From Atractiella rhizophila (Eukaryota): a stretch of DNA of 64,000 bases. Where the stretch lies: contig MU271190.1 in NCBI GenBank assembly GCA_021432655.1, positions 15,866 to 79,865 on the forward strand, in the 5' to 3' direction. Below the pieces are notes generated by a model. That model was not told the origin of the DNA, ran no database searches, and was given only the letters and a program-made list of their open reading frames with translations. Position 1 is the first letter of the stretch; the number at the start of each line of letters is the position of its first letter. Shown here piece after piece: positions 3,469 to 51,469 of the stretch. Made by a program: the position numbers and the translations under genes.

Positions 3469-3584
3469 CTGAGGTTCATCAGAGTGACAGAACGAAGAAA
3501 AGATCAGCATTGCATGAACGTTGGTGAGGAGTCACCTACCTGAGGTTCATCAGAGTGACAGAACGAAGAAAAGATGAACCTCAG
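3469..3584 (-). other. Hairpin-exon / duplicated-3'-end intron module, instance 1
   Basis: 36-nt perfect direct repeat at 3469-3504 and 3540-3575. 12-bp perfect inverted repeat at 3540-3551 and 3573-3584. On the minus strand, 3539-3469 reads GTAGGT...CAG (71 nt). Confidence 0.7.
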
Positions 3585-3759
3585 ATAGCTGAAAAACAGA
3601 CTAAACTACGGGAGCGGGCGGAACTGACACCAGATGTGATAGCCAGCTCAAAAGGGCAGAAAGAAAGTAAAAGTCAAAAACGTAATAACTTCAACAGACA
3701 ACACTTCCCAGTTTCTCGCCCCAGTTCGACCTCCACTACCAACCACCTCCCAGGCGGAC

Positions 3760-5602
3760 ATGATGAGAGCTCTCAATGCGGTCCTGCTGCGGCCTTCCCT
3801 ACTTTCGAACACGTGTGGGAACGTTTACGGTGCGGAAATCCGAATGGGACAGCCGCTCAATCAGAGAAATCGTCCCTTCCTGTTGCATCGCTGGACCGGT
3901 CAGCTTATCTTGTCCCTTCCCGGGCAGAAGAACGTCTCGACATTGCATGTTACAGCACCGTCTCTCGATGGCGTGGGTCCAGCTTATGACGTGCAAGTCG
4001 TATATCTGTCATAGCTACACAATGATATGCTAACTCCAAGATTGTCTAGGGCTGAAATACCGTGGGGTTCCGGGCCGCTCTTTCAAACATTCATACTCCC
4101 CAGTAAAATAGCCTACCTGATACGTTGGTGGGGCAACTACTCAGTACCAGTGCTGGCACTCTCGCCATCGGAAGGACCCGGTGTGCCTGCCGATAATGAA
4201 ACTGCTTTCAACAACTTGATTCAATTCCTAAAGTCACCAGGTCGCGTCATGTTGTTTCAGTTCAAAAACTTAGGGCTGCTCAATGGCCTCCTGCTCTGCA
4301 ATTTAGGATCGAACGCCTCATCCGTTCGAGCCCTCGCCTTCGCTTTCCACAAGCAACCCCTCCCTATCAAACTAGTGCCTCACGAACTGAGGCTTAGAAC
4401 TTCCGCAGCCATGCAACCGAAACCAACGTTGTCCAATCCCCCCTTTGCAATACATGTATGGTCACGGAACAATTCTCAGCTAGGTATACACAAGCTGCAC
4501 CGCAGTTCATGAAGGGGCCCGTCCCTGCGTACGAACCAACGGCTCTGTTGGCTACCATACCATCAACTGGTGCGGTAAAGTCTCAGTTGGCGCATGTCAA
4601 CATCATCACCACGTCGGATTCAAGTTGCAGTGGATCATTTCAGCTCTCCATTCTCCCTCGGTCCTATCTCGCATTCCCCTGTCAATGCACAAGTTCCGTG
4701 TCACTTTTGTCCTCCTTCCTTCTATGCCTGCGGATTTTTTTAGAGAATTTGTCCTCCAAATTGTCGTATTTCTCGATCGAATGTCTAGAAAATGGAGTTG
4801 AAAACAATGGTGTAGCGGATCTTCACATCATTTTTGACATCACCTTCAACTTGGACAATGGCCCATTGGCGATGTATTGTTTTACACCTGTTTTGGACAG
4901 TCCACCTGCGGCCAGTGAGGTTTTCACTCGCGAGTTTTCTCTCCTTCCAGAAGATCGCTCACTGGCCATCTTCACCCCTGTCGCCTCGCCTTGTTCTGCG
5001 AAGATAAACGGTGTTTCGTTTCTATCACTCCTGAAGACTCATATTCCCCCCCAAGTCCCATCCTTCAGTCAATGGTCCGCAAACATTATCCAACTCTCGA
5101 TCGTTCCACCTGCTCTGCTGAGGCTTGCTTTATCTCCCTACTACCCATCGAACTCCTTTCTCGCATCTTCGATTGCCTAAACAACGGCAAAATATTGATA
5201 TGGGATAGGAAGCAATATAAAAACTATAACGCGACAGCTTTCCATGACGTTTGCAAGCTCTGAAGGACTGTTTCAATTCCGTATTGGGCTGAACCTTATT
5301 GCGTGAAGAAGAAACATGCTCTCTTGAAACTCTATCCTGATGCTGGTCGTCTATGGACAAGGCTGTGCTTTCAGCTAAATATCAGTGTTGCTACGACGAA
5401 GGAGATCATCATGGGCTCACCAAACATTACGACCCTTGTGCTTAGTGCTTGTTGGTATGGAGAGGAGGCGAAGGTCGTGTTGAATGTAATTAAAGGCTTG
5501 AGTCGGTTGGACGATATCCGCTTTGACGGGAAAGGTGGGAGAAGGTGGAGAAGGGACGAGGTTGAAGACTTTATGAGGACGATGAGTGGGAGGATCAGGG
5601 AA
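3760..5602 (+). pseudogene. Degraded F-box-like gene (paralogue of 8522-10051), truncated at the 3' end
   Basis: CFISLLPIELLSRIFDCL F-box-like motif. CKL*RTVSIPYW has TGA at 5261-5263 where the paralogue has W (CQLWKAVSVPY). YPDAGRLW and EEAKVVL match the paralogue. Frames are broken upstream and similarity stops near 5600. The 5' limit is uncertain. Confidence 0.7.
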
Positions 5603-5636
5603 GACAGATTGGCGTCTCGTTGTGAGTGCGCATTGG

Positions 5637-8521: not shown

Positions 8522-10051
8522 ATGCTCCGGATATTTGTTGAATTCTGGAGCGATTATTATGGGCCATCGAAATCATCCTACTTCTCTCTGGCAGGTCTCG
8601 AAAATGAAATCGAACCCGACGGTACAGTGATTCTTTGTGTCGCGGAGGAGGAGGAAAGTATTGCAGTGACTTTTAGGGATGCCAATTATCTTGCATATGT
8701 GGATATGGATGACCTGGTGCTGTCCTTCACATGCACGTTTCACCTTCCAGATAATCGCTCTGAGGCCATCTTCGAACCTATCGCCCTATACTGCGAGGAG
8801 GAGGAACAGTGTTTCATTCCTCTCAGCGAATGGGAGGAATCAACCATCCCATCCACCAGTCTGGGGAGAACCATCCAACTCTCCCTCTCCACAACTCGAC
8901 CTACAGGTATTAGTACATGCAGTATCACACACCTTCCTACTGAGATCCTCTCACTCATCTTCAAGTTTCTTTCATTTGATGAAGATAACTATCTCGTTTC
9001 CTTCAAGCGACTTTCTGCTGTCTGTCAGCTTTGGAAGGCTGTTTCAGTCCCTTATCTGAATGAATATGTTTCTGTAAAGGAGAAGCATGCTCGTTTGACA
9101 GCTTATCCTAATGCCGGGCATTTGTGGACATCCCTCCGGTTTATGAAACAGCTTGACTATGACGTCAGCGTTGAGATGGTGAAAGACGTCATCGCTGGCT
9201 CGCCGAATGTTAAGGTGATGGAGATGGATGCATTGTGGAATGAAGAAGAGGCGAAGGTTGTGTTGCATGCGATTGAAGGCTTGAGGAAGTTGGATTTCGT
9301 AACCTTTGGAATGGGAGGTTGGAGAAAGTGGAAGAAGAGTGAGGTCCAGAATTTTATGTGGAGGACGGGTAATAGGAGCAGATCCTTCCGTGCTTTCAAA
9401 GTGGAGGACTCTGCCTCGTCGACATCACCAGGCCTTCAATTGTCTTCTGACCTCAAAAGACTAGTGCTTTATGCATACCCGCCTCTCCCATCGCTCTCCC
9501 TCCCAAAGACTCTCAAATATTTGTTTCTCTCCAATCTGTGTCCCCTCCCTCCCTCCGTCTCAGGCTCCTGTCTGCCGCCTCTTCTAGAATATCTCGAGAT
9601 CACACTTGCCCCCTACTCGCCTGCTGGAAAGACCTCCATCCTACCAACTCCGCTCGAGTTATCACACCTCAAACATCTCATTAACCTCTACCTCGACGGT
9701 GGTGAGGAAACTTCCAACCTCGTTTCCCCCCAGTTCTTCCACTCCCTCAGAAATGCAATAGCGATAACAACCATAGATGTTTGGTACTGTGTGGTGGACT
9801 GGGAATTCACAGGGTTCATATTCACAGATTTCATCTGCTGGTTCTTTGGAGACAGGGGGGTGAAGGAGGAGGGAGATACGGCAGATGGAGCTGCAAAGGT
9901 GAAGATGACAAGAGGACGCGAGTTGAGGGTTCAGCTATTCTTTGGAGGGTGGCTTCAGGAAGAGATATGCAAGGCAAGAAGCCTGTTGAGAGAGTTCGGG
10001 GTGAGTGAGGGGAGTAAATGGAAATGGATTCAGGAGGGTGAGGAGGAGTGA
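8522..10051 (+). CDS. F-box-like / LRR-like protein of a lineage-expanded family (ORF open from 8348)
   Basis: Long intact ORF with CSITHLPTEILSLIFKFL...LSAVCQLWKAVS F-box motif followed by LxxLxL-like repeats. Start codon uncertain (8348 or 8522). Confidence 0.75.
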   Translation: MLRIFVEFWSDYYGPSKSSYFSLAGLENEIEPDGTVILCVAEEEESIAVTFRDANYLAYVDMDDLVLSFTCTFHLPDNRSEAIFEPIALYCEEEEQCFIPLSEWEESTIPSTSLGRTIQLSLSTTRPTGISTCSITHLPTEILSLIFKFLSFDEDNYLVSFKRLSAVCQLWKAVSVPYLNEYVSVKEKHARLTAYPNAGHLWTSLRFMKQLDYDVSVEMVKDVIAGSPNVKVMEMDALWNEEEAKVVLHAIEGLRKLDFVTFGMGGWRKWKKSEVQNFMWRTGNRSRSFRAFKVEDSASSTSPGLQLSSDLKRLVLYAYPPLPSLSLPKTLKYLFLSNLCPLPPSVSGSCLPPLLEYLEITLAPYSPAGKTSILPTPLELSHLKHLINLYLDGGEETSNLVSPQFFHSLRNAIAITTIDVWYCVVDWEFTGFIFTDFICWFFGDRGVKEEGDTADGAAKVKMTRGRELRVQLFFGGWLQEEICKARSLLREFGVSEGSKWKWIQEGEEE

Positions 10052-10122
10052 TGCTGGAGATACTCGGATTTCACCAACGGTCCAGGAAGACACAAGAAGA
10101 AGGTGCGCAGTTGTATCCTTCT

Positions 10123-10365
10123 CCCCATCTAACGCACATCCTGTTGATTCTTCATCCTGAAGATCTTATCAGGGACGAGGCAGCCATCGATCGAGTAATT
10201 CAAGCTGAGCTGTGTGATCCGGACAAGGACCCTGTATTGTTTGAATAGTCACCAAACATATGCTACATGGTCCATGCGGCGAACATAATCCACATGCACG
10301 TTGCATGGTTGATGGAAAGTGTGGCAAAGGGTACCCCAAGCCTTTTGTCGAGGAAACAAAAACAA
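10123..10365 (+). mobile_element. Helitron Rep-domain fragment (pseudogenised)
   Basis: PHLTHILLIL...IDRVIQAELCDPDKDPVLFE*VTKHMLHGPCGEHNPHARCMVDGKCGKGYPKPF matches the Helitron HUH Rep region. In-frame TAG at 10246-10248. Confidence 0.85.
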
Positions 10366-10409
10366 TGCAAATGGTTAACCTACTACTATTCCTTCACGAC
10401 GGAACTGTT

Positions 10410-10524
10410 CCTACTAAGGGTACATTAGGGTTCAACCCTGGCTCTTTCAGGAATGAGATCCAGGCTGAATCCTTGCCTCCTGGGCACCTAGGGTACAACC
10501 CTGCCTATGTCAGGAACTGGATCC
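10410..10524 (+). repeat. Partial copy of the 63-bp minisatellite block
   Basis: About 113 bp matching 10742-10855 with a few substitutions. Confidence 0.85.
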
Positions 10525-10617
10525 TAACCCTAACCCTAACCCTAACCCTAACCCTAACCCTAACCCTAACCCTAACCCTAACCCTAACCCTAACCCTAAC
10601 CCTAACCCTAACCCTAA
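10523..10617 (+). repeat. Interstitial telomeric tract (CCCTAA)~16
   Basis: CCTAA followed by 15 perfect CCCTAA units. Confidence 0.97.
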
Positions 10618-10740
10618 AGTACTGGAGGGAAGCCTTAGACGGACGGTGCCTGAGGAAGAGGATCGAGTCCTACATGGATGGGGGCACGGGCGAAGGGTGC
10701 AGAGAGGGCGAAGAGCAGTGCTCGAACTGCGAAGGCATCC
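10618..10740 (+). pseudogene. Fragment of a RecQ-like (telomere-linked helicase) Zn-binding region
   Basis: CLRKRIESYMDGGTGEGCREGEEQCSNC fits the C.R..(I/L)..Y.DG...C....C..C pattern of fungal RecQ/TLH C-termini. It abuts the telomeric tract directly. Confidence 0.65.
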
Positions 10741-11081
10741 CCCTACTAAGGGTACTTTAGGGTTCAACCCTGGCTGTTTCAGGAATGAGATCCAGGCTGA
10801 ATCCTCGCCTCCTGGGCACCTAGGGTACAACCCTGCCTCTGTCAGGAACAGGATCCTGGCTGAATCCTTGCCTCCTGGCTGCCCAGGGTACAACCCTACC
10901 TCTGTTAGGAACAAGATCCTGGCTACATGCTTGCCTCTTAGGCACCCAGGGTATGAACCTGATGCTGTCGGGAACAGGATCCCACCTACATCCTTGCCTC
11001 CTCGCCGCCTAGGGTACAACCCTGCCTATGTCAGGAACAGGATCCTGGCTGAATCCTTGCCTCCTCGCGGCCTAGGGTACA
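10741..11081 (+). repeat. 63-bp minisatellite, ~5.3 units
   Basis: (T/C)AGGGT recurs at 10758, 10821, 10884, 10947, 11010 and 11073. Most units carry the AGGGT-NNN-ACCCT palindrome. Confidence 0.9.
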
Positions 11082-11991
11082 AATCCACACTACCCATCTC
11101 GCGTTATCAGCAGATCATAGACACCTCTGACGGCGAGAGAGGACACGAGAGAGAGGGAGTGAGTGAGGCGTCAGAATGCACTCCATTACCCTCTTAATCC
11201 CTCTGCCCTCTTCACACCCCTTTCAAGCACTCAGCTGGCTCTCCGCCTTCCCTCTACATATCTGTTGCCACTGGCACAGTCGTCACCGTTCCCCTCGCTC
11301 CGCCGCCACTTACCAGCCCTTACCTGCGCGCGTTTCTCTCTCAGCTTACCGCTCTCTCTTATCCCATACCAATCTGCAGCTGGTGAGGAGGAGGGAGGGA
11401 GGTCGATAAGGGATGCCGAACGAATGCAGCAGCAGGGAAAGACGACATCGGCTAGCCCTGCCCACCTCGTCTGCAGCCGCCGCCTCCTTCACCTCTGGCA
11501 GACCGCCATACCAGGTCGTCTACCCCGTGTGTTCTGTCTCCTTCTCTGTCTTTGTTCGGATATGGACATCGGAGAGGTGGAGGAGGGCGAGAGGCATGTC
11601 GGATGACCATGAAGAATAAATGTGGTTAAAGACAGCTGCTTTCACCTACTGCCGTCTCCTTAACTAACCCTCGCTCTCCTCTGGAGCTCAACCGTCGTCC
11701 ACCCTTGCGTTGCTCGCCAGAAGCTGCTAGCACGTTTCAAATCCAGTGTCGTCTTGTCTTCAATAATATATTGCAATGTGTTGAAACGAGTTCAATGTAA
11801 TCACAATATAGAATATCGGGGAAATGAAACTTGGTCATTTGTTAGATGCCACATGATAACAGAGAAGAGGATGATGGATACATGACAAGTACAAAGATTC
11901 TGGCTGAACAATTAGTTGAATCATTAACCACACTTGTACATGGGTTGCCCATTGGCTGATAGTGTTCGAGAATTGCTCGACTGAAAAGCTA

Positions 11992-13083
11992 TCACATAGG
12001 TGACCATGCTCCTATTCTAAAGCTGCTAGCTCCTCCACACTTCGGAACGTGATAGGCTTGTCCTTCCAATTCCATAGAAGAAGCTTTGGTGGAGCTGTCG
12101 ACACGCAGATGTCCTGCTGGACAGCAGGCACTGCCGTCGTCGAGTTGCTGCTCCGTCTGAGGTGGGCCCATCGAAAGGAGGCTCTTGAATTGGTCGATAG
12201 CGATAGATTGATGGTCGAAAGGGGAGATGAGATGTTGGAGGCCGGGAGATTGAGCCAACAAGATCCACAGCATGGATGGAAGGTAGCACTCGGAGTTTAG
12301 GGCGAGCGAAGCAGAAAAATCAAGCAGGTCTTCCCCTGAATGGAAAATTTCTCCGAGAAGTCGGTATGGAACGGGTTGTGTATGAATCCATAGCTGGCTT
12401 TAGTGCTGGCAAATCCACAAGAGAACTGGCGGCAGGATAAGCAGCATAAGCAGAAGTCACATCCATAAATCACGCACCTTGTCGACGATTGACCTACACC
12501 CTCGGGACTTCTTGCTAAAATCGAATACTGTCGGGGTATCCCCTTTGATATACTCGTGCATACCCGCTTGAAATTTATGGGAAACAGACGGGATTCTCTC
12601 ATCCATCGTAACTAGAGACTTGTCTCGCCATGAGATGCCATGATCTGGATACAACTCAAGATTCCTTTGCTGTTGGAGAAGTAGAGGCGAGTCGGCATGA
12701 ACTTTGAAGGTCTGGTAAAGGTCTTTTAAAACCGGCAACACCCGAGCACCGAAGTGGCTCAAAACATCCTCGGCAAGACAGACCTCATCCATGTGCATGT
12801 ACTCCGTGTAGATTGTAAACCTCGAGGCAAGATTGTCGACAGCCCCAGAAACGAGAATATCATCCGTCACACTTGGGCTGTCCAAAAAGTTAAACAACTG
12901 TTGAGCGAGACGAGGACCCATGTCGGGCTCTCGAATCGCGGCATATGGAAGAATATGTGGCGTAACTAGCCTTGAGGTGTGGGGTGATTTGTGACTGCTT
13001 CTATGGATGCAGGTAATCTTGGGGACAGGGAAGTGGGTATCCTGAAGAAACTGTTTGAGCCTCAAAATTTGGCTTCGCGACAT
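11992..13083 (-). pseudogene. Repeated-family gene (MSRSQILRLKQFLQD...), putative PD-(D/E)xK-like nuclease; frameshifted in exon 2
   Basis: Paralogue of 52986-54006. A 1-nt loss near 12315 (CLIFLLRSP* vs CLIFSASLAL) breaks the frame. Fold assignment is inference. Confidence 0.6.
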
Positions 13084-13377
13084 GCTTAACGGGAGATTAG
13101 AACCTTTCTTCCTGCATATCTTTTAGCATAGGATACAACAGACAATCCCCTGATCAGTATGACGTACCGGGAGGTTTAGCTGAGGACTTGGGTGAGGAGT
13201 CAAATGCGTTGTTGTCGTGATCTCGGGAGTTGCTCCAAGCTTTCGGTTCCGGATATTATCTTTGTCCACCTTGCTTTCCTTCAGCAGTGCAGCCGTCTTC
13301 TTCGTCACCTCTCACAGAGATTAAAGATTGCCCCGCCGCTGTCGCCCCATAACTGGATGGCTCCTTTTGGCTTGAGG

Positions 13378-13563
13378 CCTAAAAGATCCCCAATCACACA
13401 GAAGTGAGCACAATGAAATGTATTATGATGTGATTTGGTATAAAGTACATCTATTCGAAAGCGTACCTAAAAGATCCCCAATCACACAGAAGTGAGCACA
13501 ATGAAATGTATTATGATGTGATTGGGGAAAGAAAATATGGATTCCCAGGTGCCTCCTTATAAG
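13378..13563 (-). promoter_or_regulatory. TATA + hairpin-exon / duplicated-3'-end intron module, instance 2
   Basis: 58-nt perfect direct repeat at 13378-13435 and 13466-13523. 12-bp inverted repeat at 13475-13486 and 13517-13528. Minus-strand GTACGC...TTTTAG intron at 13466-13379 (88 nt). TATAA at 13561-13557. Confidence 0.7.
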
Positions 13564-13869
13564 ACCGGACTTGCGGTGAAGTGCCACATGTTTGCATCTG
13601 CATCGGAACGCGCGGCAAACACCTCAACACACTTCATATCTCCACCCCATCTTGCCTTGCAACACCCTCGCTCATTCTTGCGTTGACTCCTCAAGAAGTC
13701 GTTAGCGTCATTATTCATTCACGGTCAAGTGTTGTCTTGTCTTCATGTTGCACTCTCTTAAACTCTAAAACGATTTCAATGCACTCACAATGAAGAGTAT
13801 TTTGGGAAATCAGTTATTTGATATGAAATGACAAAGAGAAGAGGATGACAGATACTTGACAACTGTTGG

Positions 13870-14050: not shown

Positions 14051-14204
14051 AAAAGATATACATGCTGTGTCCATGAGACAAGCCGTCATGCATAACAAGA
14101 ATACGCACCTCAGTCCATTGTAGTATTTGTACTACGTACGACGTTAGTGTCAATGTTGACCTCCGAATACCTAGACGAGTACGATGCAAGCTCAAAATCT
14201 TAGG

Positions 14205-14572
14205 ACGTGATCTCTACCTCTTTCATGGCACTTGGTCAAATTTGACGTTGACGAACTTTCGACTTGTGCGACCATTCTGACTAAATCCAGCTTCTGTGGA
14301 AGGCGTGTGACTTTCACATTTGGCCAGGGCAGGGGTTACGTGGGTTATATAAGCAGTTAAGGTGCACTAGATCAACTCTGTTCTGTTGGCTGTGGGAGCT
14401 GTGAACTCGTCATGGGGAAGAGGGCTGATGCTCTTCGCTGGGAGCACAGGAGGTCAGAAACTTGACTGCCCACTACGATGATAACCCATCGACTGACACC
14501 ATCCCCTTTCCTTACCGTTCTCGCATTAATCTCGTCCGTTCATATCCACCCGCATCGGCAGAACCCCTCACC
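14205..14572 (+). repeat. Duplicated promoter, 5'UTR and signal-peptide segment of the TRP-like gene (source 19646-20013)
   Basis: ~368-bp near-identical direct copy including TTATATAA and ATGATAACC. A 1-nt deletion stops the copied ORF early. Confidence 0.95.
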
Positions 14573-16568: not shown

Positions 16569-17395
16569 GCACTCAAGATGGGACTAGAGTTGGACGAGTT
16601 GGGAATCTTGGGATGAAGAACGAACTTATGCAATGCATCGTGAGTTTGCGAAAGTGGCCAGAAGACGCAAGGAGAAAAAGTTTTGCGCTCTGATTTTGAG
16701 GAGATTTGCCCATCTAACATCAATACTTTTGGACCTGTTTTAACACTGACGGACGCCGACCCTTGGGTCTGCTGCACAACCGACAACGCCTCCGCCAGCG
16801 CAACCGCCACCGTTACTTCCGCCTCCGCCTCCTCAGCGTCTCTCACCCTAATCCCCCACCCTGCAAATGTGGCGAGCGCTCGACGGAGCACACCCTCTCC
16901 AAAGAGGGACCCAACAAGGGTCGGCTCTAGAGGCGAACCTGTACGGTACTGAAGGTGTGGGGGATGAAGCTTCTGAGCGACACTCAGGAGGAGGCGGGCT
17001 CCAAGCGAGCTCAGACGAGTGGGAGGGAGGATCAGGAGAGGGGAGCATGCGGTGTCTGTGTGGACTGAAAGCCATCCTGCTCACCGTCTCCAAAGAACGT
17101 CCGTCCCTCCTTTCTACTCCGTACTCCACTGGCTTCTACTCCACTGGGCCAATCTGATGGCTGACGATACACAGGCCTGAATATGAGCCGTCGGTATTAT
17201 AAATGCCTAAAGGTGTCAACGACCGCCAAATGCACCTTCTTCTAGTGAGCGGACGTGGCGAGTGGGGCGGGACTGCCGCCTGGCGCATGCTTCAGTTGTG
17301 GGATGGTGGGCCACTGAACGAAGAATTGTCGGCAGCCGGAGCAGTGATGGGTGGGAGAGGGTATGTCGTGACAAAATCGTGCGCCTCCTCCTTTC

Positions 17396-17620
17396 GCCAC
17401 TTGCGCACTTGCGCGTTTCCACTTTCGTCGAGCGTGTTCTGGAACTGTGGCAACTTCTCTTTTGCCACAGGGATCTTAGCTATAAAAGCCTTTCACCTGC
17501 AAGTGCGAGACTCACACTTATTTGTTATCTCGCACTTCGCAGGTAATGTAGTTCCCTTACACACTAAATGCAACACACACTTATTTGTTATCTCGCACTT
17601 CGCAGCGCTCGCACATTTGT
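17396..17620 (+). promoter_or_regulatory. TATA + hairpin-exon / duplicated-3'-end intron module, instance 3 (homologous to 51247-51469)
   Basis: TATAAAA at 17481. 10-bp stem at 17501-17510 and 17528-17537. 30-nt direct repeat at 17513-17542 and 17576-17605. GTAATGT...GCAG intron at 17543-17605 (63 nt). Upstream CTGTGGCAA/TTGCCACAG inverted repeat. Confidence 0.7.
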
Positions 17621-18687
17621 CATGTCGGTTAGGATTATAGGAGGAATATGGAGCAGAATATAGTGAGCTGCATGAGACGGCCATTTGCTGAGCATGAGGT
17701 GTTATCTTCGAGTTTCGAGACGCGCATTCTTCGTTCTTTGCGGTTGCTTGTATTGTTATCGTGCTGTCAAAGATATGTAGCCCCTCACTTGGCCTCACTC
17801 TGACGATTTGAAGTCTCTAGACTAGACCGAAATAGGCTGAACGATTCACAATGACCTGGACGACTCAGCTCATCGCCCAGGGGGTGATGAAATAAAACAC
17901 TCACGGAGTTCAAACGCGACTTTAACAAGTCCACATATAGGCGACCACGTCAACGGAACGTAATTTACTTGCTCTTGCCCAGCATTCTTACGCTCGCGGT
18001 TCCTGATCTGCAAGCGCGTCGTCTATGTGCTGAAGCTCTCTGATGTCCACTTCCTGATGACTTTATGATGCTCTTCCCCAGCTGGTAGAAAGACGAGATT
18101 ATGCACGAATGAACGTCCCCATTGTAACTTACTAATGGAGCGCTCACGACGCGAGAATAAACAACACAGAGGCAGAAGCAGCTGTCGAGGAGGGTCCAGG
18201 CATGGAGGCAGCGATGGCCGAATGGAATCAAGGTGACTGGGGCTGGATGACCGTATAGCCTCTCCAATCTGCAGCAACCATATCCATCGTACCATCCTCA
18301 AACCCAGATCACCCCAATACAACAAAACAGGAAGAAGTGGAGACGAGATTTGAAGATTATCTCCATCTGATCCGAGCTTACAGAGCAAATGGTCCGCACA
18401 GAAAATAGGTGGGGCACATAAAGTATTCGACTAAGAAGTTGGGGAAGGATTTGTAGGGGATTGAATTTGGAGGAAACCGATTCCTAAATTTCATGGTAAC
18501 AATGTCCAGGGATCGGTATGTAAATTTAAACACAAAGTACGAGAACAGGATGGTGCGAGAATGAGGTATGCGAAAATACACCGACCTCATGCCTCAACAG
18601 CAAACCCATAGAAAGGACTTAAGCGACAGGGGAACCGAATGTATGAGTGCTAGATCGATGCGTAGGAGAAGGGCTGGAGATGAAGAG

Positions 18688-19221: not shown

Positions 19222-19917
19222 AGCTGCTATTGTTATTGGTTGAGAGGGTGGAGACGAGTAAAAAAGGGGAGTGGAGGTTATTATTTTTGATCTCGTGATC
19301 AGTCACAAAAGGGGAAGGTGGCACACTCGCAAAGGTTCACGGAATTTCTCATCTATATCCTATACTCCTATCCTGAGATTCATCAGTTCTTGGCATGAGT
19401 CATAAAACGCACTTTTGAGCGCTCATACGCCCTCACCAGGCATATTGAAATGAAATGAGTTACACCATCTTACCGCATATGTTGCGCCTTTCTGAAGCTG
19501 CAAGGTAATTTTATTTTGGAGTAGTGAGAAAAGTGTTTTGCAGTGGACTCGAACCCTTACAGGGGTCACAGTAACCTTGCGAGTGGGTGGGGGCCTGAGC
19601 TTAGTTGTTTTGTTCTTAATCTCAACGAGCGAGAAGTGTTTCAGCACGTGATCTCTACCTCTTTCACGGCACTTGGTCAAATTTGGCGTTGACGAACTTT
19701 CGACTTGTGCGACCATTCTGACTAAATCCAGCTTCTGTGGAAGGCGTGTGACTTTCACATTTGGCCAGGGCAGGGGTTACGTGGGTTATATAAGCAGTTA
19801 AGGTGCGCTAGATCAACTCTGTTCTGTTGGCTGTGGGAGCTGTGAACTCGTCATGGGGAAAGGGCTGATGCTCTTCGCTGGGAGCACAGGAGGTCAGAAA
19901 CTTGACTACCCACTACG

Positions 19918-26373: not shown

Positions 26374-26411
26374 GAGATTCGAACTCTGCGCGAAGGCAGT
26401 AGGTATATAAA
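26374..26411 (+). promoter_or_regulatory. Putative U6 upstream elements: reverse B-box-like motif and TATA box
   Basis: Reverse complement of 26374-26386 is GAGTTCGAATCTC. TATATAAA at 26404-26411 lies ~30 nt before U6 +1. Confidence 0.55.
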
Positions 26412-26433: not shown

Positions 26434-26458
26434 GCCTCCCTTCGGGGAGTGCATACGA

Positions 26459-26490
<32 letters not shown>

Positions 26491-26553
26491 GGCCCCTGCA
26501 TAAGGATGACACATTGCGACAGAATGGAAGCCTCTAAGGAGGCAAATTTTTTT
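26434..26553 (+). ncRNA. U6: U6 spliceosomal snRNA
   Basis: 5' stem with TTCG loop, AAATTGGAACGATACAGAGAAGATTAGCATGGCCCCTGC..AAGGATGACAC core and T7 terminator. No intron. Confidence 0.97.
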
Positions 26554-27150
26554 ATAGAGACAATCTTTTTTTATAACCAATCCTTTGCCCATCACCAGAA
26601 TCTGGTTCCCAGGAAAAGCGGCAACTCTCCCATCAACTGCAAGCGCAAGCGAGCAAGCAAGAGTCTTGTTTCGTAAACTCTTATCCCCGCTGTCTAACTA
26701 CTTAACTACTTCGGGAATGCTCAGCGTGTTTCTATAATTGTCGCAAGGATAGGCTAGCCAGTAAAGTGCCCAGCAGTTCAAGTTCTTTGTTTGATAAGCC
26801 ATCTGATATCTTACTTTGGGGACAGAATGACATTCGCTCCGCCAGAAGGACCACCACCACCTCTTCCGTTGAACCTCCCGTTCTGCCATCCCGTCGATCT
26901 TGCCCGGTTTCACAAGCGAGGATGGATGCCCATCGATTTAGCTGCTGTTTCTCTCCCCGATATACCAGATGTTCACGAGCATTTCCTCCAGCTTTTCGAC
27001 CTCGGCAAATCTTTCTTTAACGAACCATTATCGTCGAAAGAAGCGTACGATTTCAGTGGTGTAGAAGGATCCGAACATGGGTGGAGTCGTGTCGAAGGGG
27101 AGAAGGAACTGCTGACGGTTCGTTCGAAAGAGTCAACACCTCCGGTCCTA

Positions 27151-27175
27151 GCCTCCCTTCGGGGAGTGCATACGA

Positions 27176-27207
<32 letters not shown>

Positions 27208-27269
27208 GGCCCCTGCATAAGGATGACACATTGCGACAGAATGGAAGCCTCTAGGGAGGCAAATTTTTT
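27151..27269 (+). ncRNA. U6: Second U6 copy lacking the upstream TATA/B-box (possibly an assembly duplicate)
   Basis: Identical core. Starts exactly at the duplication junction. Confidence 0.7.
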
Positions 27270-27542
27270 ATAGAGACAATCTCTTTTTATAACCAATCCT
27301 TTGCCCATCACCAGAATCTGGTTCCCAGGAAAAGCGGCAACTCTCCCATCAACTGCAAGCGCAAGCGAGCAAGCAAGAGTCTTGTTTCGTAAACTCTTAT
27401 CCCCGCTGTCTAACTACTTAACTACTTCGGGAATGCTCAGCGTGTTTCTATAATTGTCGCAAGGATAGGCTAGCCAGTAAAGTGCCCAGCAGTTCAAGTT
27501 CTTTGTTTGATAAGCCATCTGATATCTTACTTTGGGGACAGA

Positions 27543-28631
27543 ATGACATTCGCTCCGCCAGAAGGACCACCACCACCTCTTCCGTTGAACCTCCCGTTCT
27601 GCCATCCCGTCGATCTTGCCCGGTTTCACAAGCGAGGATGGATGCCCATCGATTTAGCTGCTGTTTCTCTCCCCGATATACCAGATGTTCACGAGCATTT
27701 CCTCCAGCTTTTCGACCTCGGCAAATCTTTCTTTGACGAACCATTGTCGTCGAAAGAAGCGTTCGATTTCAGTGGTGTAGAAGGATCCGAACATGGGTGG
27801 AGTCGTGTCGAAGGGGAGAAGGAACTGCTGACGGTTCGTTCGAAAGAGTCAACACCTCCGGTCCTCCAAAATCAAGCAGAGCTCATTTGGGATATATTTG
27901 GACGCCTCATCAAACTCATTGTTTCGGAAATCGAAATATCGCTGAAATGGGAAACTGGTAGCTTGAGCAAACTCGTCGACCCTTGCATTAAGGCACTCCC
28001 CTTGTCGAAAGAGGAAAAGGTAGCAACTCTACTTCGAATGTTTCGCTACGAACAACACACGACCGACATCGTCAGCAAGGCAGCCAATGGAGCGCCATTA
28101 CCTCCAGGCATACGACTCGTGGGGTACCCGCACGCTGATTTGGGGGTTCTATCACTCGTCATCGGTTCTTCTCCAGGACTTCAAGCTCACGACACGTATG
28201 CTGGCCAATGGATTTCGATCGAGGAACCTTACTTCCTTCCCTGGACTCCTCGACTTCCGTGTACCCTCCTGGTCGGCCATACGCTCTCCAAGTTGACCAA
28301 TGGCGTTTATTCTCCAGGAATGCATGCCGTCGTGGTTCCCCCGGACTTGGGAAATGACCCCTTTCGTTTCTCACTGGTCTTCGCAGTCCGCGCTCACGAC
28401 ACGGTGGTTGTCGATACCAAGGAGCTCGAGACTTCTGTCACCGGTCCGTTCTCGAGTGCGAACAAGGCTGAGGGAATAACCGGCTTAGAGTTGTGGTCGT
28501 CCATTGCGAAGACAAAGGTCAGTATCAACTCCCAGTCGTCGCGTGCAAGGCTTGTGGAAGTGATGGGTGAAGAGCGCGCAAACGTACTGATAAAGGAACG
28601 TGGCTTTGTTACTGGAAATAAAATGGGTTAG
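27543..28631 (+). CDS. 2-oxoglutarate/Fe(II) dioxygenase (IPNS/DIOX-like)
   Basis: LLRMFRY, PHADLG (HxD), GMHAV (distal His), RFSLVF (RxS). Confidence 0.88.
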   Translation: MTFAPPEGPPPPLPLNLPFCHPVDLARFHKRGWMPIDLAAVSLPDIPDVHEHFLQLFDLGKSFFDEPLSSKEAFDFSGVEGSEHGWSRVEGEKELLTVRSKESTPPVLQNQAELIWDIFGRLIKLIVSEIEISLKWETGSLSKLVDPCIKALPLSKEEKVATLLRMFRYEQHTTDIVSKAANGAPLPPGIRLVGYPHADLGVLSLVIGSSPGLQAHDTYAGQWISIEEPYFLPWTPRLPCTLLVGHTLSKLTNGVYSPGMHAVVVPPDLGNDPFRFSLVFAVRAHDTVVVDTKELETSVTGPFSSANKAEGITGLELWSSIAKTKVSINSQSSRARLVEVMGEERANVLIKERGFVTGNKMG

Positions 28632-28748: not shown

Positions 28749-30062
28749 TTATTCGTGCCTGTTACGTTTTCTTGAACTGCCGTCATCATAATCTCCTCCG
28801 CCCATACCTCCTCCATTGAAAAATTGACCTCCTGGCTGCTGGAATCCTCCTCTTCCACCTTGAAAGCCTCCCCTCATGCCCATGGGGAACCCACCACCGC
28901 CCCTCCCCCTCATCTGGTTCATGAATGCCTGGGCGACGGGATTATTCTGGGTGAAGTTCTGAGGCATCATCCCCTGCTGAGGCTGCATGTTCATCATTCC
29001 CATCCCTCCTCCCATTCCAGTATTCATTCCCATCATCGGGTTCATCGGTCCGCCGCGGGCCATCCCTCCCCCTCGCCCTCCTGAAAATGGTTGCTGCATA
29101 GGTCGATTGTTGTATCCACCACCGCTACCAAAACTCTGATTGTTGTAAGCTCCATCGCGGTTCCCACGGCCACGTCCACCTCCAGCTCCATCACGCGCAG
29201 TCGGTTCTATAAACTTGTCAAAAAAAAACGGCACCAATGGAACAAAGTTCTGTACCTTTGGGTAGAGTCCTGAAAGGGTTTCCTTCTCTCGAAGATCCAA
29301 CACTGATCTGGAGGCGCTTGCCTTGAAAATCACTGCCATAACCATTGATTCTGCACCGCACCGAATGAAGCAGAACCTTACGTGCTAATAAAATGATTTC
29401 TCGCAATCTCGGCTTCTTGAGAGTTACTAAATTCAACGAAAGCGATGCTAAAAAGCGGTTAGGATAGGCGTTCATTTGAAAGGTGATGACAAACCCTTTA
29501 GACTTTCCGTTCACCTTATGCTCTGAGAACGTGATGTCTTTATGGTCAATAGAGATTCCAAGTTTTTGAATAGCAGCGCGGATGTCTTCGTCCGTTGTCC
29601 ACTCCAGCGCTCATCAGCTTTATGGATTACATGGGGAGAAAAATACATACCCAGTGAAGCTCAGAAAGATAGAGCCCGTTGTTCACAAGGTTCTGTTTAC
29701 TACCAGAGGGCTAGACTCTCATCAGTGACACGCTGTCGTCATAGACGGAGTGGCGTACATTTCTCGAGTCCCCATTAGAGAAGCCATTCGACGGAGCTGC
29801 ATTGGCTGTAAAATCCTCAAGTTTTGGCACTTTGGAAGGACGAGAGTCTGCAGTCGGGGACTGCGAGCGATTAGAGGAATCAAAATCCCCACCAGAAGGT
29901 ACTTCCCCTCCACCGTCGTAAGCATTTAAATCACCGTAGAGGTCGGAATCCTGGTTCTCGAAATTGAGCCTCCCCTGCACATTTCTTCATAGAACTCACG
30001 CCAGCTGGTTGTTCCACATCTCCATAGATGTCCAAATCGTCATCTGCAGTGCGAGGAGCCAT
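28749..30062 (-). CDS. CFIm68/CPSF6-like RRM protein with RGG/Met-Gly-rich tail, multi-exon
   Basis: DDLDIYGD N-terminus, [16 protein letters not shown]...[14 protein letters not shown] (CPSF6-type RRM), and an RGG-rich C-terminus. Confidence 0.8.
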
Positions 30063-30898
30063 AGTTTCGAAAAGCGAATTGGTTGCAACGTATGATCCTA
30101 TTGATAAAAGCCATATTACGCGTCTAATATACAGGCAACGAGCGAGACATCGTCAGAACTTCTCGACAGCGGAGGAATTCACAGGCTACAGAACACAGTT
30201 TGACAGACTCTTGAATTGTATGGACATGCTGGGCCTTCTAACATGTTGTGTAGGTAGCGCACAACAGAGACTCCTCCCTTCTTTCCACCCACCGCCTCAA
30301 ACCCCATCATCAGCTTGCCAAAAATACTCACCGTTCGCTATGTGTTTGCGTCACAAGGATGTTCACGTCTCCGTCGCTACCGTTTCTGTTCTGCGAAGAC
30401 TTCGTAGGATTTGGCAGGCAGAAGACTTTGTTGGTTATGCACATTTCTTCATAGAACTCACGCCAGCTGGTTGTTCCACATCTCCATAGATGTCCAAATC
30501 GTCATCTGCAGTGCGAGGAGCCATAGTTTCGAAAAGCGAATTGGTTGCAACGTATGATCCTATTGATAAAAGCCATATTACGCGTCTAATATACAGGCAA
30601 CGAGCGAGACATCGTCAGAACTTCTCGACAGCGGAGGAATTCACAGGCTACAGAACACAGTTTGACAGACTCTTGAATTGTATGGACATGCTGGGCCTTC
30701 TAACATGTTGTGTAGGTAGCGCACAACAGAGACTCCTCCCTTCTTTCCACCCACCGCCTCAAACCCCATCATCAGCTTGCCAAAAATACTCACCGTTCGC
30801 TATGTGTTTGCGTCACAAGGATGTTCACGTCTCCGTCGCTACCGTTTCTGTTCTGCGAAGACTTCGTAGGATTTGGCAGGCAGAAGACTTTGTTGGTT
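29976..30898 (+). repeat. 461-bp apparently identical tandem duplication
   Basis: 29976-30436 and 30438-30898, separated by one extra A. Confidence 0.95.
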
Positions 30899-31079
30899 GG
30901 TTGTCGTTCGTCTCTCACTTTCCTGAAGTAGGGTTAGGTCTATCTCACGTGCGTATGACGCGCTCATTAGTTTCCTTTCAAAGTTCAAACAACCAAATCT
31001 GCCCAACATCCTCTGCTGCTAGAGGTGTCCTCTACCTATATTTCTTGGCTTCGATTTTCTTGGATCGACATTTTTGAAT

Positions 31080-41967: not shown

Positions 41968-42059
41968 ACGAAGCCTTGTATTGAAACAGTGCAAAATGAA
42001 ATGAGATCCTTGTCTAGTACACTGTGAAGACATTCTTACATACAAAAAGCAAAAGGACT

Positions 42060-48665: not shown

Positions 48666-49190
48666 CCCTATCCATAACGCACCCCATCGCTCACATACGG
48701 AACACAGCGAGATAAGCAAACAAACTGAACGTTGTTCTCTCCGAGTTCGCACTACAGATGGAGTCAAAGGGTACAAACCAAAGTTGAGGACAACGTAACA
48801 AGCTTCGAACAACAATGCTGGATAACGATGCTTAGAAGAATGTATTTGACCATCAGTTAGATAATGTCTTCTCAGTTTGAGCGCGTGAGTTTTGCGTGAT
48901 CCATGTTGAAAGTGGTTTTCTGCAACTGCAGGTGCAGGGCGAAACGAGCCTGAATCCCCTTTGATCGTTGAGTGGAGAGATGAAAGTGCCGCGAAATTGC
49001 GATGGCATGTCACGAATCACATCGATGACATCAATGACAATACAATATTCAACACAAGCAGCTCCAGGAACTCTAGAATAACTTCGTTCACGAGAAGAAC
49101 AAATCTCTTATATAAGCGGAACCCCATCTGTTTATAAGGCACGGCGTGTCGAAGTCTGAATCTCCCTCACCATCAACATCGCGTTCCATT

Positions 49191-50525
49191 ATGCAGTCCA
49201 CAGGGAGAGATTCGTCTGACTGCAACACGTTGAGATTCCGTCTCGCTGTCAGGAGTAGAAGTCTGCTAGACTTATTGACTCGAGTGCGACCACGGAGGTC
49301 GTCTCACACCTCCGATAGATCCCCTGTTGTCGAAGATGCTCCTACGCCGTATCTTGCACCATCTAGCGAAACTGTCCCTACTATCTACGAACGTCCTACG
49401 ACTGATAGGCTTGATACAACTCGATTGCTTCCGGTTCCCATTCCCACCTTGACCTTGGTGAGTCCATGCGAATCTGTTGACAACGAGGCATTTCCCCTTC
49501 TGCGTCGAGGTCCTCCTTCAGCGCGGAGCTCAGGGGGCTCTCCCTCGACTCCTACCGCAGAGCTCACGGTTACTCGGTCAGAATCCTGGATCAGCCGTTC
49601 CTCATCCGATGGTGCAACACTCTATCCTCGACTGGACGATAATCGAGAACAAATTTTTCTTGAAGCAACCTTAAGCATTGGCGATATTCACACTTCAACA
49701 GGTTCCTCTCATCGCCCACTTGGCGCAGAGTTTTCTATTACCAGGGATAATCTGCCTCCGACATTTGCGTCGACTTGTTCTCGATCTCCAGCCATCCAAG
49801 TCGACGATGCGGGAGATAATCCTGCCGGAGATTTTGTGACATCTGGTCTTTTCTTCGACAGTCTGGACAACAATTACCCTCTGGTTGATTCTGGTTTCGG
49901 TGAATTCTCTCAGAGTTGGTCGCCAATACTTCGCTCTATCAACGAAACGCTGAATTCTGAGCGAGACCTTTTTGATACTGACGTTTGTCACGAGGAATTT
50001 ATCCCAGCCCCAGGTGCCCAGGCTGTGGAGGATTCAAGCCCGAATGAAGGCAGTTCCCATTCTCCTACAGTCGTTTTGGAACCTTTGAACGCCATCAAGG
50101 CTTCACCGCATGGCGGGATTCTCACAATCTACCCAATGACGGACGATCTTATCTCTTACTGGGACCATCAAAATAAAAAGCTTCACACAAAGGTCCCTCG
50201 TTATCCTTCAGAAATGTTTCATTGCGTAAAAACGAAACAGATGAAACATCGGTGGAAGAGACTTGTGTTTGATAAGCAAACCTACGTAGAAGTTCGACTA
50301 GGGGGGAAGGTTGTCCTGCCCTCAGATGGTGGTGAAGGTGCGCTTTCGTTAAGTTTATGGTATGTGATACGTTCTTATATGATGCAGTAGAATGGTTCAA
50401 AGGACAGCTGCTACACATCGGTTTGTGCTTCCTCAAGTTGCCCACTCTCCACTGAGCACCTTTCCAACAGGCAACTGTCAAAATCCGTCCTTCAAGTTTC
50501 TCTCGGAGGACTTCACGACAAATGA
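49191..50525 (+). CDS. Hypothetical Ser/Pro-rich protein
   Basis: ~400-codon ORF after TATA-like motifs (49108, 49132). Likely intron from 50360. The 3' end is uncertain. Confidence 0.5.
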
Positions 50526-51246
50526 CCCAAACAACCCACCGATGCTTGCTGGCGATCCTTTCGTCGCAAGGCCCATCAGGGCGAGGTCGGTCTTTTCTCT
50601 TGCTCTGCCATGTGGCTGGAACCCATCTGACCGCGATGGTAGGAAACACATTGCCACCAGCAGATGCCCCGCTCACGACCAACAAGAAAGTCTTATTGAG
50701 CTATGTCGCTTACAGGTTGAGCTGGTCAACTCTCGTTCTCGGTCCAAGACCACCAAGCGCAGCTCCAAGATCAGGTCCAGGACCAGCAAGTCTAGAGTTA
50801 GAGCCTAGAGCGGTAGAGTGACGTTGGTTGGCCTACACTCTTTCTCTTTATGTTCGTCTTTTCAACCTCACCCGTCCAAACTGATTCCTTCATCGTGATA
50901 CAGTCAACTGGAATGTTCGAAGTCGATCACACTTTTTATTTCCTTATTCTTCCTTGACTACACATGGCAGTGCCTCAAGAAGTGTATGATGTATGATGAG
51001 ATGTATGAGCATGCTAGGTTGGCTGTATCCTTGTGGCGAATGGTGGTTTTCCGAATTGCATGAGTCCAAATCAGGGTAGGATGGTATATCTGTAGAGTAT
51101 TCAAATGAATATAGTAACTTTAAGAAGCCTGCCGCGCGCCAGACCATGCTTCCATTACCTCTGGAGTTTACCCTGAACTCGAACCAGGTCAGGATCACGT
51201 GCTGAGGAATCCTTTTCGTTGATGAGCTGAGCTGAGGTTTTCATTC

Positions 51247-51469
51247 ACCACTTGCGCGCTTGCGCGTTTAGTTTCCTTCGAGCGCTTTTTGGAACTGTGG
51301 CCAATCTTTGCCACAGGGATCTCTCTGTTATAAAAGCTTGTAGACATGCTAGTGCGAGATTCATACTCAGTGTTATCTCGCACTTCGCAGGTAATGTAGT
51401 TTCCTTACCAACTGAATGCAATTGATACTCAGTGTTATCTCGCACTTCGCAGCGCTTATACATTTGTCA
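51247..51469 (+). promoter_or_regulatory. TATA + hairpin-exon / duplicated-3'-end intron module, instance 4
   Basis: TATAAAA at 51329. 10-bp stem at 51351-51360 and 51375-51384. 28-nt direct repeat at 51363-51390 and 51425-51452. GTAATGT...GCAG intron at 51391-51452 (62 nt). Confidence 0.7.

Follow-up and report, generated by a model that had tools for sequence, protein, structure and literature searches.

Four loci within a 64-kb stretch of Atractiella rhizophila DNA, which was analyzed at its full length and is called the window below, share a repeat module that looks like an unusual, actively homogenised case of introns being born from local duplications, and not like a proven RNA switch. 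At each locus a putative first exon is followed by a predicted intron, and this intron ends with an exact copy of the exon. X1 and X2 denote the first and the second exon copy, and U denotes the unique part of the intron, i.e., its first 30-35 nt. The parts of the four loci are as follows.

3469..3592, minus strand: module of locus 1, predicted intron of 71 nt, TATA box absent
3584-3573, minus strand: 5' arm of the locus 1 inverted repeat, extending to 3592 at 90% complementarity
3575-3540 and 3504-3469, minus strand: X1 and X2 of locus 1, exact direct repeat of 36 nt, spacing 71, X2 ending with AG
3539-3505, minus strand: U of locus 1, starting with GTAGGT
13372..13643, minus strand: cassette of locus 2, about 270 nt
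13378..13561, minus strand: module of locus 2, predicted intron of 88 nt
13561-13555, minus strand: TATAAGG of locus 2
13528-13517, minus strand: 5' arm of locus 2
13523-13466 and 13435-13378, minus strand: X1 and X2 of locus 2, exact direct repeat of 58 nt, spacing 88
13465-13436, minus strand: U of locus 2
17393..17622, plus strand: cassette of locus 3, ending in a 17-nt tail in common with locus 4
17398-17413, plus strand: tandem of two CACTTGCG in locus 3
17445-17470, plus strand: hairpin of locus 3
17481-17488, plus strand: TATAAAAG (TATA) of locus 3
17501-17510, plus strand: 5' arm of locus 3
17513-17542 and 17576-17605, plus strand: X1 and X2 of locus 3, exact direct repeat of 30 nt, spacing 63
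17543-17575, plus strand: U of locus 3
51244..51469, plus strand: cassette of locus 4
51329-51336, plus strand: TATAAAAG (TATA) of locus 4
51351-51360, plus strand: 5' arm of locus 4
51363-51390 and 51425-51452, plus strand: X1 and X2 of locus 4, exact direct repeat of 28 nt, spacing 62
51391-51424, plus strand: U of locus 4

The preliminary description had reported a hairpin, an AG|GT junction and an intronic copy of the exon at these four loci, and the letters, the repeats and their ends were indeed as claimed. In all four cases copy 1 ended with AG and was followed by GT, copy 2 also ended with AG, and a perfect inverted repeat of 10-12 bp was present at the module. The TATA box that had been noted ahead of three of the four loci was found at loci 2, 3 and 4, and not at locus 1. 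It was also correct that the same architecture recurs on differing sequence, and the modules belong to two unrelated sequence families.

The module was exclusive within the window. A scan for exact repeats of at least 14 nt with a spacing of 20-300 yielded 33 rows, 29 of which fell into three tandem arrays (the telomere repeat, a 63-nt array and a 120-nt coding repeat), and the other four were the four modules. The longest other exact repeat outside the arrays of the window was 12 nt. When the window was scanned for AGGT...AG with at least 15/20 identity between the copies, 10 rows were obtained, i.e., the four modules (all 20/20) and six array rows. The same scan gave a mean of 0.1 rows on ten shuffles. 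Decayed or imperfect modules were not detected in the 64-kb window at this threshold. Perfect inverted repeats with a stem of at least 10 and a loop of at most 40 were found in 18 nested rows (1.85 rows in 20 shuffles), which correspond to 11 distinct hairpins by count, and four of these were the modules. As a control, 80 metagenome loci (491,284 nt in total) were scanned, which are for the most part fungal relatives of a poly(A) polymerase exon. Seven non-tandem exact repeats of at least 16 nt were present on these contigs, and none of the seven had the AG|GT signature of the module. Judging from this comparison, the module does not appear to be a general fungal feature.

The segments of 62-88 nt from the AG|GT junction through copy 2 resemble genuine short introns, with GT...AG at their ends and branch-like motifs of the form CTNAY. 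A modelled intron of a neighbouring gene is similar in size (52 nt) and has the signals GTGCGT...CTTAC...TTAG. No AG of the predicted intron comes after the one that closes X2, and the only earlier AG lies within 15 nt of the donor in loci 1-3; locus 4 has one extra AG at position 42. The two bases after copy 2 are TT, GC, CG and CG, while copy 1 is always followed by GT, and the base preceding X2 is a G in two of the four loci.

The left end of the repeat also coincides with a landmark. In three loci the repeat starts at YYC|A (ttc|A, ccc|A, ttc|A), and in locus 3 the A is the second base of the repeat (ct|CA). The distance from the first T of the TATA box to the repeat start is 32 and 34 nt in loci 3 and 4, respectively, and 38 nt in locus 2. 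The U6 gene of the window can serve for calibration, and the distance from its TATA box (26404) to +1 is 30 nt. Because the repeats start at a similar spacing, X looks like the entire first exon, from the predicted start to the splice donor. The 5' arm, in contrast, occupies +20..+29 and +22..+31 from the first T in loci 3 and 4, i.e., it lies between the TATA box and the predicted start, and a start at the U6-like spacing would thus leave it outside the RNA. In locus 2 the 5' arm is found at +33..+44.

Each locus looks like a small cassette of promoter and leader, and the cassettes appear to have been copied as units to new places. The cassettes of loci 3 and 4 (about 230 nt) are 80% identical, while their flanks are unrelated. 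For locus 2 an empty site could be compared, and the genes involved are the following.

11083..13371, minus strand: gene downstream of the locus 2 cassette, member of a multi-copy family
52480..54973, plus strand: paralogous gene copy without the cassette, the empty-site comparison for locus 2

The block 11083..13371 (-) is 91% identical to 52692-54973 (+), and the cassette is absent from this copy (insertion point 52688/52692). It breaks the predicted CDS of the family after about codon 5. The cassette is likewise missing from the CDS model of a third paralogue, whose start MSEGERQKEP runs across the insertion point. Within the family, the first 146 residues of P0002 are identical to the ORF 12457-13122. 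The cassette of locus 4 is joined directly to a degenerate piece of the locus 2 gene family (51473-51636). Loci 1 and 3 have no clear downstream ORF, and both face the 3' end of a neighbouring gene. Reading of the alignments revealed no terminal inverted repeat (TIR) at the intron or cassette ends and no LTR ends or clean target duplication at the cassette limits, and none of the 146 ORFs of the window matched reverse transcriptase, integrase or transposase families. A solo LTR or another classified transposon was rejected, because TG...CA or TIR termini and a clean target duplication were not seen at the cassette limits, nor element proteins among these ORFs.

Comparison of the loci with one another revealed how differently the parts have evolved. 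The three repeat sets had been described as unrelated. This is true for the repeats X, which differ, and not for the intron parts, because U of locus 1 resembles U of locus 4 at 19/22 aligned positions and at the same offset, a score that was reached by none of 2000 shuffles. The similarity of the unique intron parts points to a distant relationship of locus 1 to loci 3 and 4. When loci 1 and 4 are compared, U is more conserved than X or the promoter, and X, promoter and tail lack significant similarity, which is odd for plain paralogues. Further U-like copies, beyond the three related modules, were not found in the 64-kb window. The repeats of loci 3 and 4 differ by three substitutions and one indel, all four of which are mirrored in both copies, and unshared differences between the copies do not occur. 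The co-varying positions fall into the loop part of the repeat. U of these two loci has diverged as much as the rest of the common cassette, and thus it was probably already present before loci 3 and 4 separated.

The explanation that we favour, and hold tentatively, is a local duplication of promoter-proximal sequence together with the leader, which turned into a 5'-UTR intron, and conversion that keeps the exon copies identical. The cassette would consist of a TATA box (in three of the four loci), a short non-coding exon X of 28-58 nt about 30-38 nt later, and a GT-AG intron of 62-88 nt. It would have originated by a local, near-tandem duplication of promoter-proximal bases plus leader exon. 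Unit 1 would have been kept as core promoter and exon 1, while the promoter-proximal part of unit 2 would have decayed and become the 5' half of the intron. An intron spliced out between the GT that follows copy 1 and the final AG of copy 2 would correspond to exactly one repeat unit, and the mRNA leader would thus be the same as before the duplication. Recurrent conversion would hold both X copies identical while the surroundings diverge. The most economical donor would be the spliced transcript, either as cDNA or as an RNA template, because the block of identity extends from the predicted cap site to the donor, and because X2 and the downstream exon have the same order as in the spliced mRNA that is predicted. 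This route through the transcript is conjectural, and the 146 ORFs of the window include no match to reverse transcriptase. The inverted repeat of 10-12 bp would be mainly a DNA-level feature around the start site.

Adjacent direct copies of the exon part are exact in all four loci, and the whole unit is recognisable in locus 2 only. There, the repeat extends upstream of X to 79 nt at 89% identity. The 30 nt ahead of X1 match U in register at 15/30 positions (p = 0.004; global alignment p = 0.023), and by eye AGGC is seen where unit 1 begins and again behind unit 2, with AGGT at the unit junction. The corresponding values in register are 10/35 (p = 0.38) for locus 1, 8/33 (p = 0.67) for locus 3 and 8/34 (p = 0.72) for locus 4; a global alignment was marginal for locus 3 (p = 0.057). 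In loci 3 and 4 the repeat has frayed edges and covers 33 and 32 nt, respectively, at 97%. For repeats of 28-58 nt with only 30-35 nt between them, gene conversion is not known to work efficiently, and deletion would be expected. Duplication and conversion also leave two features unaccounted for, i.e., the perfect inverted repeat at all four modules of both sequence families and the movement of the cassettes.

A more far-reaching version is possible, although rather unlikely. The intronic X2 would be continually overwritten from the spliced transcript, the design would resist intron loss mediated by reverse transcriptase, and the modules would belong to a wider process of duplication that is anchored at RNA 5' ends. 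Conversion templated by cDNA or RNA would meet uninterrupted homology at X2 and exon 2, and as a result X2 would be homogenised to X1 and the intron would not be deleted. That process would also have produced the following tandem duplication.

26434..27865, plus strand: tandem duplication of 717 nt, left boundary at U6 snRNA position 1 (26434, 27151)

The duplication itself could instead have been RNA-templated. A break in an older first intron would have exposed a downstream end that was extended along the spliced transcript up to the cap and then joined to the upstream end, which would place a whole copy of exon 1 before exon 2. The repeat is bounded by RNA landmarks, with the predicted cap site on one side and the splice donor on the other, and X2 and the downstream exon adjoin without a gap, just as they would in the spliced mRNA. 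The G before X2 in two of the loci would fit as well, because reverse transcriptases add such a base at caps, and the 717-nt tandem would be another duplication that is tied to the 5' end of an RNA. We nevertheless regard this origin as unlikely. The similarity in locus 2 reaches 21-30 nt beyond the upstream end of the repeat, into promoter-proximal DNA that a transcript could not have supplied, the repeats of loci 3 and 4 have edges frayed by one mismatch, the start sites are predictions, and the hairpin is left unexplained. In addition, RNA polymerase III is unlikely to produce a U6 read-through transcript as long as 716 nt. The hairpin is the central part of the bistable splicing switch that had been proposed in the preliminary description. 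Transcription would start upstream of the 5' arm, and the arm would pair with either the exon copy or the intron copy and thereby regulate splicing of the leader. Pairing with the exon copy would hide the 5' splice site and free the 3' site, while pairing with the intron copy would mask the 3' site. As had been stated, the arm, if transcribed, is able to pair with either copy, because the same perfect complement of 10-12 bp is present in both. In the minimum-energy fold the partner of the arm is copy 2 in locus 4 and copy 1 in the other three loci, and this split indicates that the two states are close in energy. The stem spans AG|GT in locus 1 (20 nt, 90%) and in locus 3 (16 bp, one bulge), and thus the donor would be occluded. 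Hairpin and repeat occur together in 4/4 loci and in both sequence families, and the arm of locus 2 may be transcribed, so that the idea survives for this locus. However, the switch is disfavoured for loci 3 and 4, because their arms (+20..+31, compared with the U6 start at +30) probably lie outside the RNA with the predicted start; an RNA that begins downstream of the arm had been named in the preliminary description as speaking against the switch. It would also not require the exact identity of the loop or its co-variation between loci 3 and 4, the inverted repeat crosses the exon-intron junction for copy 1 only, and locus 1 lacks a recognisable promoter. No Rfam family or aptamer matched any of the four loci, and the four matches of the Rfam scan of the whole window (E up to 1) all lay elsewhere. 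Overall, we regard the switch as quite improbable.

The similarity of U between loci 1 and 4, which is significant while X, promoter and tail lack it, would also be expected if U were a tiny introner-like mobile element that carries a 5' splice site, duplicates a target of 28-58 nt and uses the AG of the target as 3' site. The pattern NAG|gt...nag with a 3' site from the target duplication has been described for some introners, but the target duplications of introners are 3-9 bp (PMC9860276). Moreover, the window contains no U-like copies beyond the three modules, U of loci 3 and 4 has diverged like the whole cassette and thus predates their separation, and the repeat is internal to the common cassette and not part of a host target. 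This origin is therefore very improbable. Finally, the segments might not be introns at all, and duplicated promoter-proximal DNA with paired protein sites, or the end of a mobile element, would then contain AG|GT incidentally or secondarily. The distribution of CGCACTTGC in loci 3 and 4 would fit, with two tandem copies upstream, an inverted one in the 5' arm and one in each X, and so would the behaviour of the cassettes as units of insertion or deletion and the position of loci 1 and 3, which lack a clear downstream ORF and face a neighbour's 3' end. Nevertheless, copy 1 finishes with AG|GTA and copy 2 with AG in 4/4 loci of the two unrelated families, the sizes fit short fungal introns, and neither element proteins among the 146 ORFs nor element termini or a clean target duplication at the cassette ends were seen. 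We would be surprised if this reading were correct. A spliced-leader RNA gene was rejected, because there is no Rfam match, the exon varies between loci while the intron part is more conserved, and the exon copy is present in cis directly behind the intron part.

If duplication with subsequent homogenisation is true, introns were born by duplication at promoters of Atractiella rhizophila repeatedly and in unrelated sequences, and the intronic exon copy stays letter-perfect amid decay. The latter would require either a homogenising mechanism that works efficiently on stretches as short as 28-58 nt or strong selection to keep the copies identical, and either would inform about intron gain, protection from intron loss and feedback of sequence from transcript to gene. 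In addition, portable promoter-leader cassettes that can be grafted onto or into genes would be a route to new transcription units.

Several known systems share features with the modules. In the introns of fungal TPP riboswitches an RNA structure controls splicing, and pairing hides or exposes splice sites, as in the switch discussed above; unlike these introns, the modules have no aptamer or Rfam match, and the 5' arm of loci 3 and 4 is probably upstream of the start. Intron loss mediated by reverse transcriptase through gene conversion with cDNA (Fink 1987; Derr and Strathern) and break repair templated by transcripts in yeast (Keskin et al. 2014) have reportedly been observed. In both, a spliced transcript gives sequence to its own gene, which is our conjecture here and fits the block of identity from cap to junction. 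To our knowledge, these processes delete introns or patch breaks, and they are not known to maintain an intronic exon copy. Introners can co-opt a splice site from a target-site duplication, which is 3-9 bp long in the cases considered (Gozashti et al. 2022, PMC9860276). As in the introners described there, the intron finishes with a repeat of the last part of the upstream exon, and a unique part is common to dissimilar loci (locus 1 versus loci 3/4). Unlike them, the repeat is 28-58 nt long, TIRs were not found at the cassettes, and 5'-UTR/promoter cassettes are involved instead of coding exons. Another parallel is intron creation by tandem genomic duplication, which has been documented (2011, PMC3265369; Ma et al. 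2016, PMC4974935). Both cases have in common a local direct duplication whose upstream copy provides the GT and whose downstream copy provides the AG, and an mRNA that is restored by splicing, which is predicted here. The documented introns arose from a coding AGGT segment, while promoter-proximal DNA and a whole 5'-UTR leader are concerned here. In the classical AGGT model the downstream exon starts like the intron, which is the case in none of the four loci. Compared with the introns in these accounts, the modules stand out in that the exon part alone stays 100% identical while the rest is decayed or unrecognisable, and in the co-variation of paralogous cassettes, the perfect inverted repeat and the portability of whole cassettes.

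The four loci that had been described as sharing one architecture were reread, and the shared architecture was borne out in all four sequences:

3469-3592, minus strand: locus 1
13372-13643, minus strand: locus 2, a cassette of promoter, X1, U and X2
17393-17622, plus strand: locus 3
51244-51469, plus strand: locus 4

Each module consists of a 5' arm, a first copy of the putative leader exon (X1), a unique part of the predicted intron (U), and a second copy (X2). A perfect inverted repeat of 10-12 bp was present in each locus, and the direct repeat X was 36, 58, 30, and 28 nt long in loci 1, 2, 3, and 4, respectively. In all four cases X1 terminates in AG and is followed by GT, and X2 is an exact second X that also terminates in AG. 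U has lengths of 35, 30, 33, and 34 nt, and the predicted introns have sizes of 71, 88, 63, and 62 nt (same order).

This arrangement was compared with chance. The window was scanned for exact direct repeats of at least 14 nt with a spacing of 20-300, and 29 of the 33 rows were accounted for by three tandem arrays, the remaining four being loci 1-4. The longest other repeat outside the tandem arrays had 12 nt. A simple tandem repeat was rejected as an explanation, since the modules were not reported by TRF. A scan of the window for AGGT...AG pairs whose 20 upstream bases agree at 15 or more positions returned the four loci at 20/20 each and six rows within the arrays, versus a mean of 0.1 rows in shuffled sequence; at this threshold no decayed modules were found in the window. 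Perfect hairpins with a stem of at least 10 were represented by 18 nested rows in the window, about 11 of them distinct, versus 1.85 in shuffles, and four of these hairpins are the modules. As an outside control, 80 metagenome loci, mostly fungal (491,284 nt), were used. They contained seven non-tandem repeats of at least 16 nt, none of which had the AG|GT signature. In one exact-pattern scan of the metagenome contigs, a 19-nt core of the repeat of loci 3 and 4 had no match, and Rfam revealed no known RNA families at the four loci. The literature searches yielded no account of an intron whose 3' end is a copy of its own exon, and none that dealt with introns of Atractiella rhizophila.

The repeats had been regarded as three unrelated sequence sets. 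This holds for locus 2, which is unrelated to the others, but U of locus 1 is related to U of locus 4: with matching offsets, the alignment has 19 identities in 22 positions, a score reached by none of 2000 shuffles. X, promoter, and tail of these two loci are without match. Self-comparison and alignment revealed that loci 3 and 4 have a stretch of 230 nt with 80% identity in common, which begins about 90 nt ahead of the TATA box and ends 17 nt beyond X2, and that their flanks are unrelated. The repeats of these two loci differ by three substitutions and one indel, all in the 5' part. Each of the four changes occurs in X1 as well as in X2 at either locus, and no difference is confined to one copy. 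Such mirrored changes, at a divergence of 20% of the surrounding cassette, indicate that the X copies are homogenised or selected for identity.

The U6 snRNA gene of the window is part of a tandem duplication, which is a parallel to the predicted leader duplications within the window:

26434-26551, plus strand: U6 snRNA gene, 79.9 bits
27151-27268, plus strand: U6 snRNA gene, 79.9 bits
26434-27149 and 27151-27865, plus strand: 717-nt tandem duplication, 99% identical, with a single A between the units

Position 1 of the Rfam U6 model is at 26434, which is exactly the left limit of the duplication, and TATATAAA begins at 26404, 30 nt before position 1. This box 30 nt upstream is present only at the first U6 copy. 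Each U6 match covers 118 nt against a model of 105 positions, and thus an insertion or an intron in U6 is possible. At the three modules that have a TATA box, the distance between its first T and the start of the exact repeat is 32 nt at locus 3, 34 nt at locus 4, and 38 nt at locus 2. Based on the 30 nt between TATA box and start in U6, the left limit of X is at the expected start site. In three loci the first base of the repeat is the A of a YYC|A site, and at locus 3 an A of this type lies one base within the repeat. The right limit of X would be the splice donor, and X has the appearance of a complete first exon.

All that is said here on start sites, splicing, and conversion is predicted from the 64-kb sequence. 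Transcription would begin at X1, and joining of the GT after X1 to the AG that closes X2 would remove one unit and leave the original leader. X2 directly adjoins the downstream sequence, in the way expected of exon 1 after splicing. Every predicted intron contains branch-like CTNAY motifs. Before the terminal AG, the only other AG in loci 1-3 is one within 15 nt of the donor, and the intron of locus 4 has one further AG at position 42. The modelled intron of a neighbouring gene has 52 nt (GTGCGT...CTTAC...TTAG). It is possible that U is instead read as an intron in antisense direction at loci 1, 3, and 4 (3505-3539, 17543-17575, and 51391-51424), because its reverse complement has GTRAGG, a good match to a 5' splice site; however, the given strand is favoured by the orientation of the TATA boxes and by the host genes that lie downstream of loci 2 and 4. 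The favoured conjecture is that the spliced transcript acts as a conversion donor and keeps the X copies identical. It would be colinear with X2 and exon 2, and the sharp boundary of identity on the left would correspond to the transcript end.

The hairpin had been proposed to be a bistable splicing switch, in which the 5' arm pairs with either copy. If transcribed, the arm could indeed pair with either, but the predicted starts speak against the switch at loci 3 and 4. There the arm is at +20..+29 and +22..+31 from the TATA box, respectively, i.e., mostly ahead of the predicted start. At locus 2 it is at +33..+44 and may be transcribed. The stem reaches across the exon-intron junction for copy 1 only (20 nt at 90% at locus 1, 16 bp with a bulge at locus 3), and the hairpin is perfect in both unrelated sequence families. 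It might be a fragile structure by which the duplication is provoked, result from template switching, or act as a promoter element or, at locus 2, as an RNA element. A further inverted repeat of 11 bp, likewise perfect (TTCTCTGGTTG / CAACCAGAGAA, loop 34), was seen at 3266-3321, about 150 nt downstream of locus 1.

At locus 2 the cassette could be compared with copies of the gene behind it, which belongs to a multi-copy family:

11083-13371, minus strand: gene behind locus 2
52692-54973: its paralogue, 91% identical

Homology with the paralogue picks up upstream (13663-13863 versus 52688-52480), and the paralogue lacks the about 270 nt between, i.e., promoter, X1, U, and X2. The protein model of a third paralogue starts with MSEGERQKEP, across the insertion point, which places the locus 2 cassette after about codon 5 of the predicted CDS of the family. 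The first 146 residues of the annotated protein P0002 are identical to the ORF 12457-13122, and the source names its relatives as hypothetical proteins of Atractiella rhizophila. At locus 4 the cassette runs directly into a decayed fragment of this gene family. Downstream of loci 1 and 3 no clear ORF is present, and both loci point towards the 3' ends of neighbour genes.

A transposon was rejected, since no reverse transcriptase, integrase, or transposase was found among 146 ORFs of the window, and no TIR, LTR termini, TG...CA ends, or clean target duplication was seen at the cassettes. A split-direct-repeat element (DIRS/Ngaro-like) was also rejected, since U has no second copy anywhere in the window. 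A head-to-tail retroelement junction (HeT-A-like) was rejected because the locus 2 cassette is inserted into otherwise uninterrupted host sequence and because the locus 3/4 homology ends 17 nt past X2. By eye only, the left end of the locus 2 cassette has a weak 9/11 resemblance to the host target.

The window is fungal and its genes include a FunK1-type kinase, F-box, Btz, poly(A) polymerase, TIP41, and NACHT-TPR. At 60386-63998 (plus strand) a patatin-like ORF precedes a long open frame with NACHT and TPR repeats. This is an NLR-like gene, and its 120-nt coding repeats extend to the window end. Segments of about 200 nt with 69-85% identity (11691-11888, 13663-13863, 52480-52688, and 54186-54383) lie on both sides of each copy of the multi-copy gene, as old flanking direct repeats. 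Within a 63-nt satellite (5.2 copies at 10758-11082, one more unit at 10426-10522) is an internal repeat of telomere type, (CCCTAA) x 15.8 at 10523-10617 (region 10426-11082). The 3' end of the locus 2 gene immediately adjoins this region, which hints at a chromosome end or subtelomere that once lay here. The telomere-type repeat cuts off an ORF fragment at 10042-10400 (plus strand) with HGPCG...C.KGYPK, a putative motif of Helitron-type helicases; Pfam gave no match for this fragment. A 372-nt direct repeat (14202-14572 / 19643-20013, 97% identical, 5.4 kb apart) duplicates the first codons of the gene 19906-21273 and the region ahead of them, and locus 3 is situated between both copies. A perfect tandem duplication at 29976-30898 (462-nt unit, 2.0 copies, 100% identical) has a period divisible by 3 and overlaps ORFs at 30028-31074.

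With respect to the origin of the modules, the similarity at locus 2 carries on upstream of X, and the repeat finder stretches the repeat to 79 nt at 89%. The 30 nt preceding X1 match U in register at 15/30 positions (p = 0.004; global alignment, p = 0.023). By eye, AGGC is found at the start of unit 1 and behind unit 2, and AGGT at the unit junction. A microhomology-flanked tandem duplication of an 88-nt unit, comprising promoter-proximal bases and leader, would leave such a remnant, and the leader alone would have been kept identical afterwards. At loci 1, 3, and 4 the duplication signal is weak, with in-register identities of upstream bases and U of 10/35, 8/33, and 8/34, respectively (global alignment of locus 3, p = 0.057), and the repeat edges of loci 3 and 4 fray with one mismatch. 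Older decayed units upstream were represented by a single 10-mer in locus 4 (p = 0.014) and were not significant upstream of loci 1-3. Tandem genomic duplication is an established route of intron creation according to PMC3265369 and PMC4974935. Loci 1-4 differ from the classical AGGT duplication, in which the downstream exon begins like the intron.
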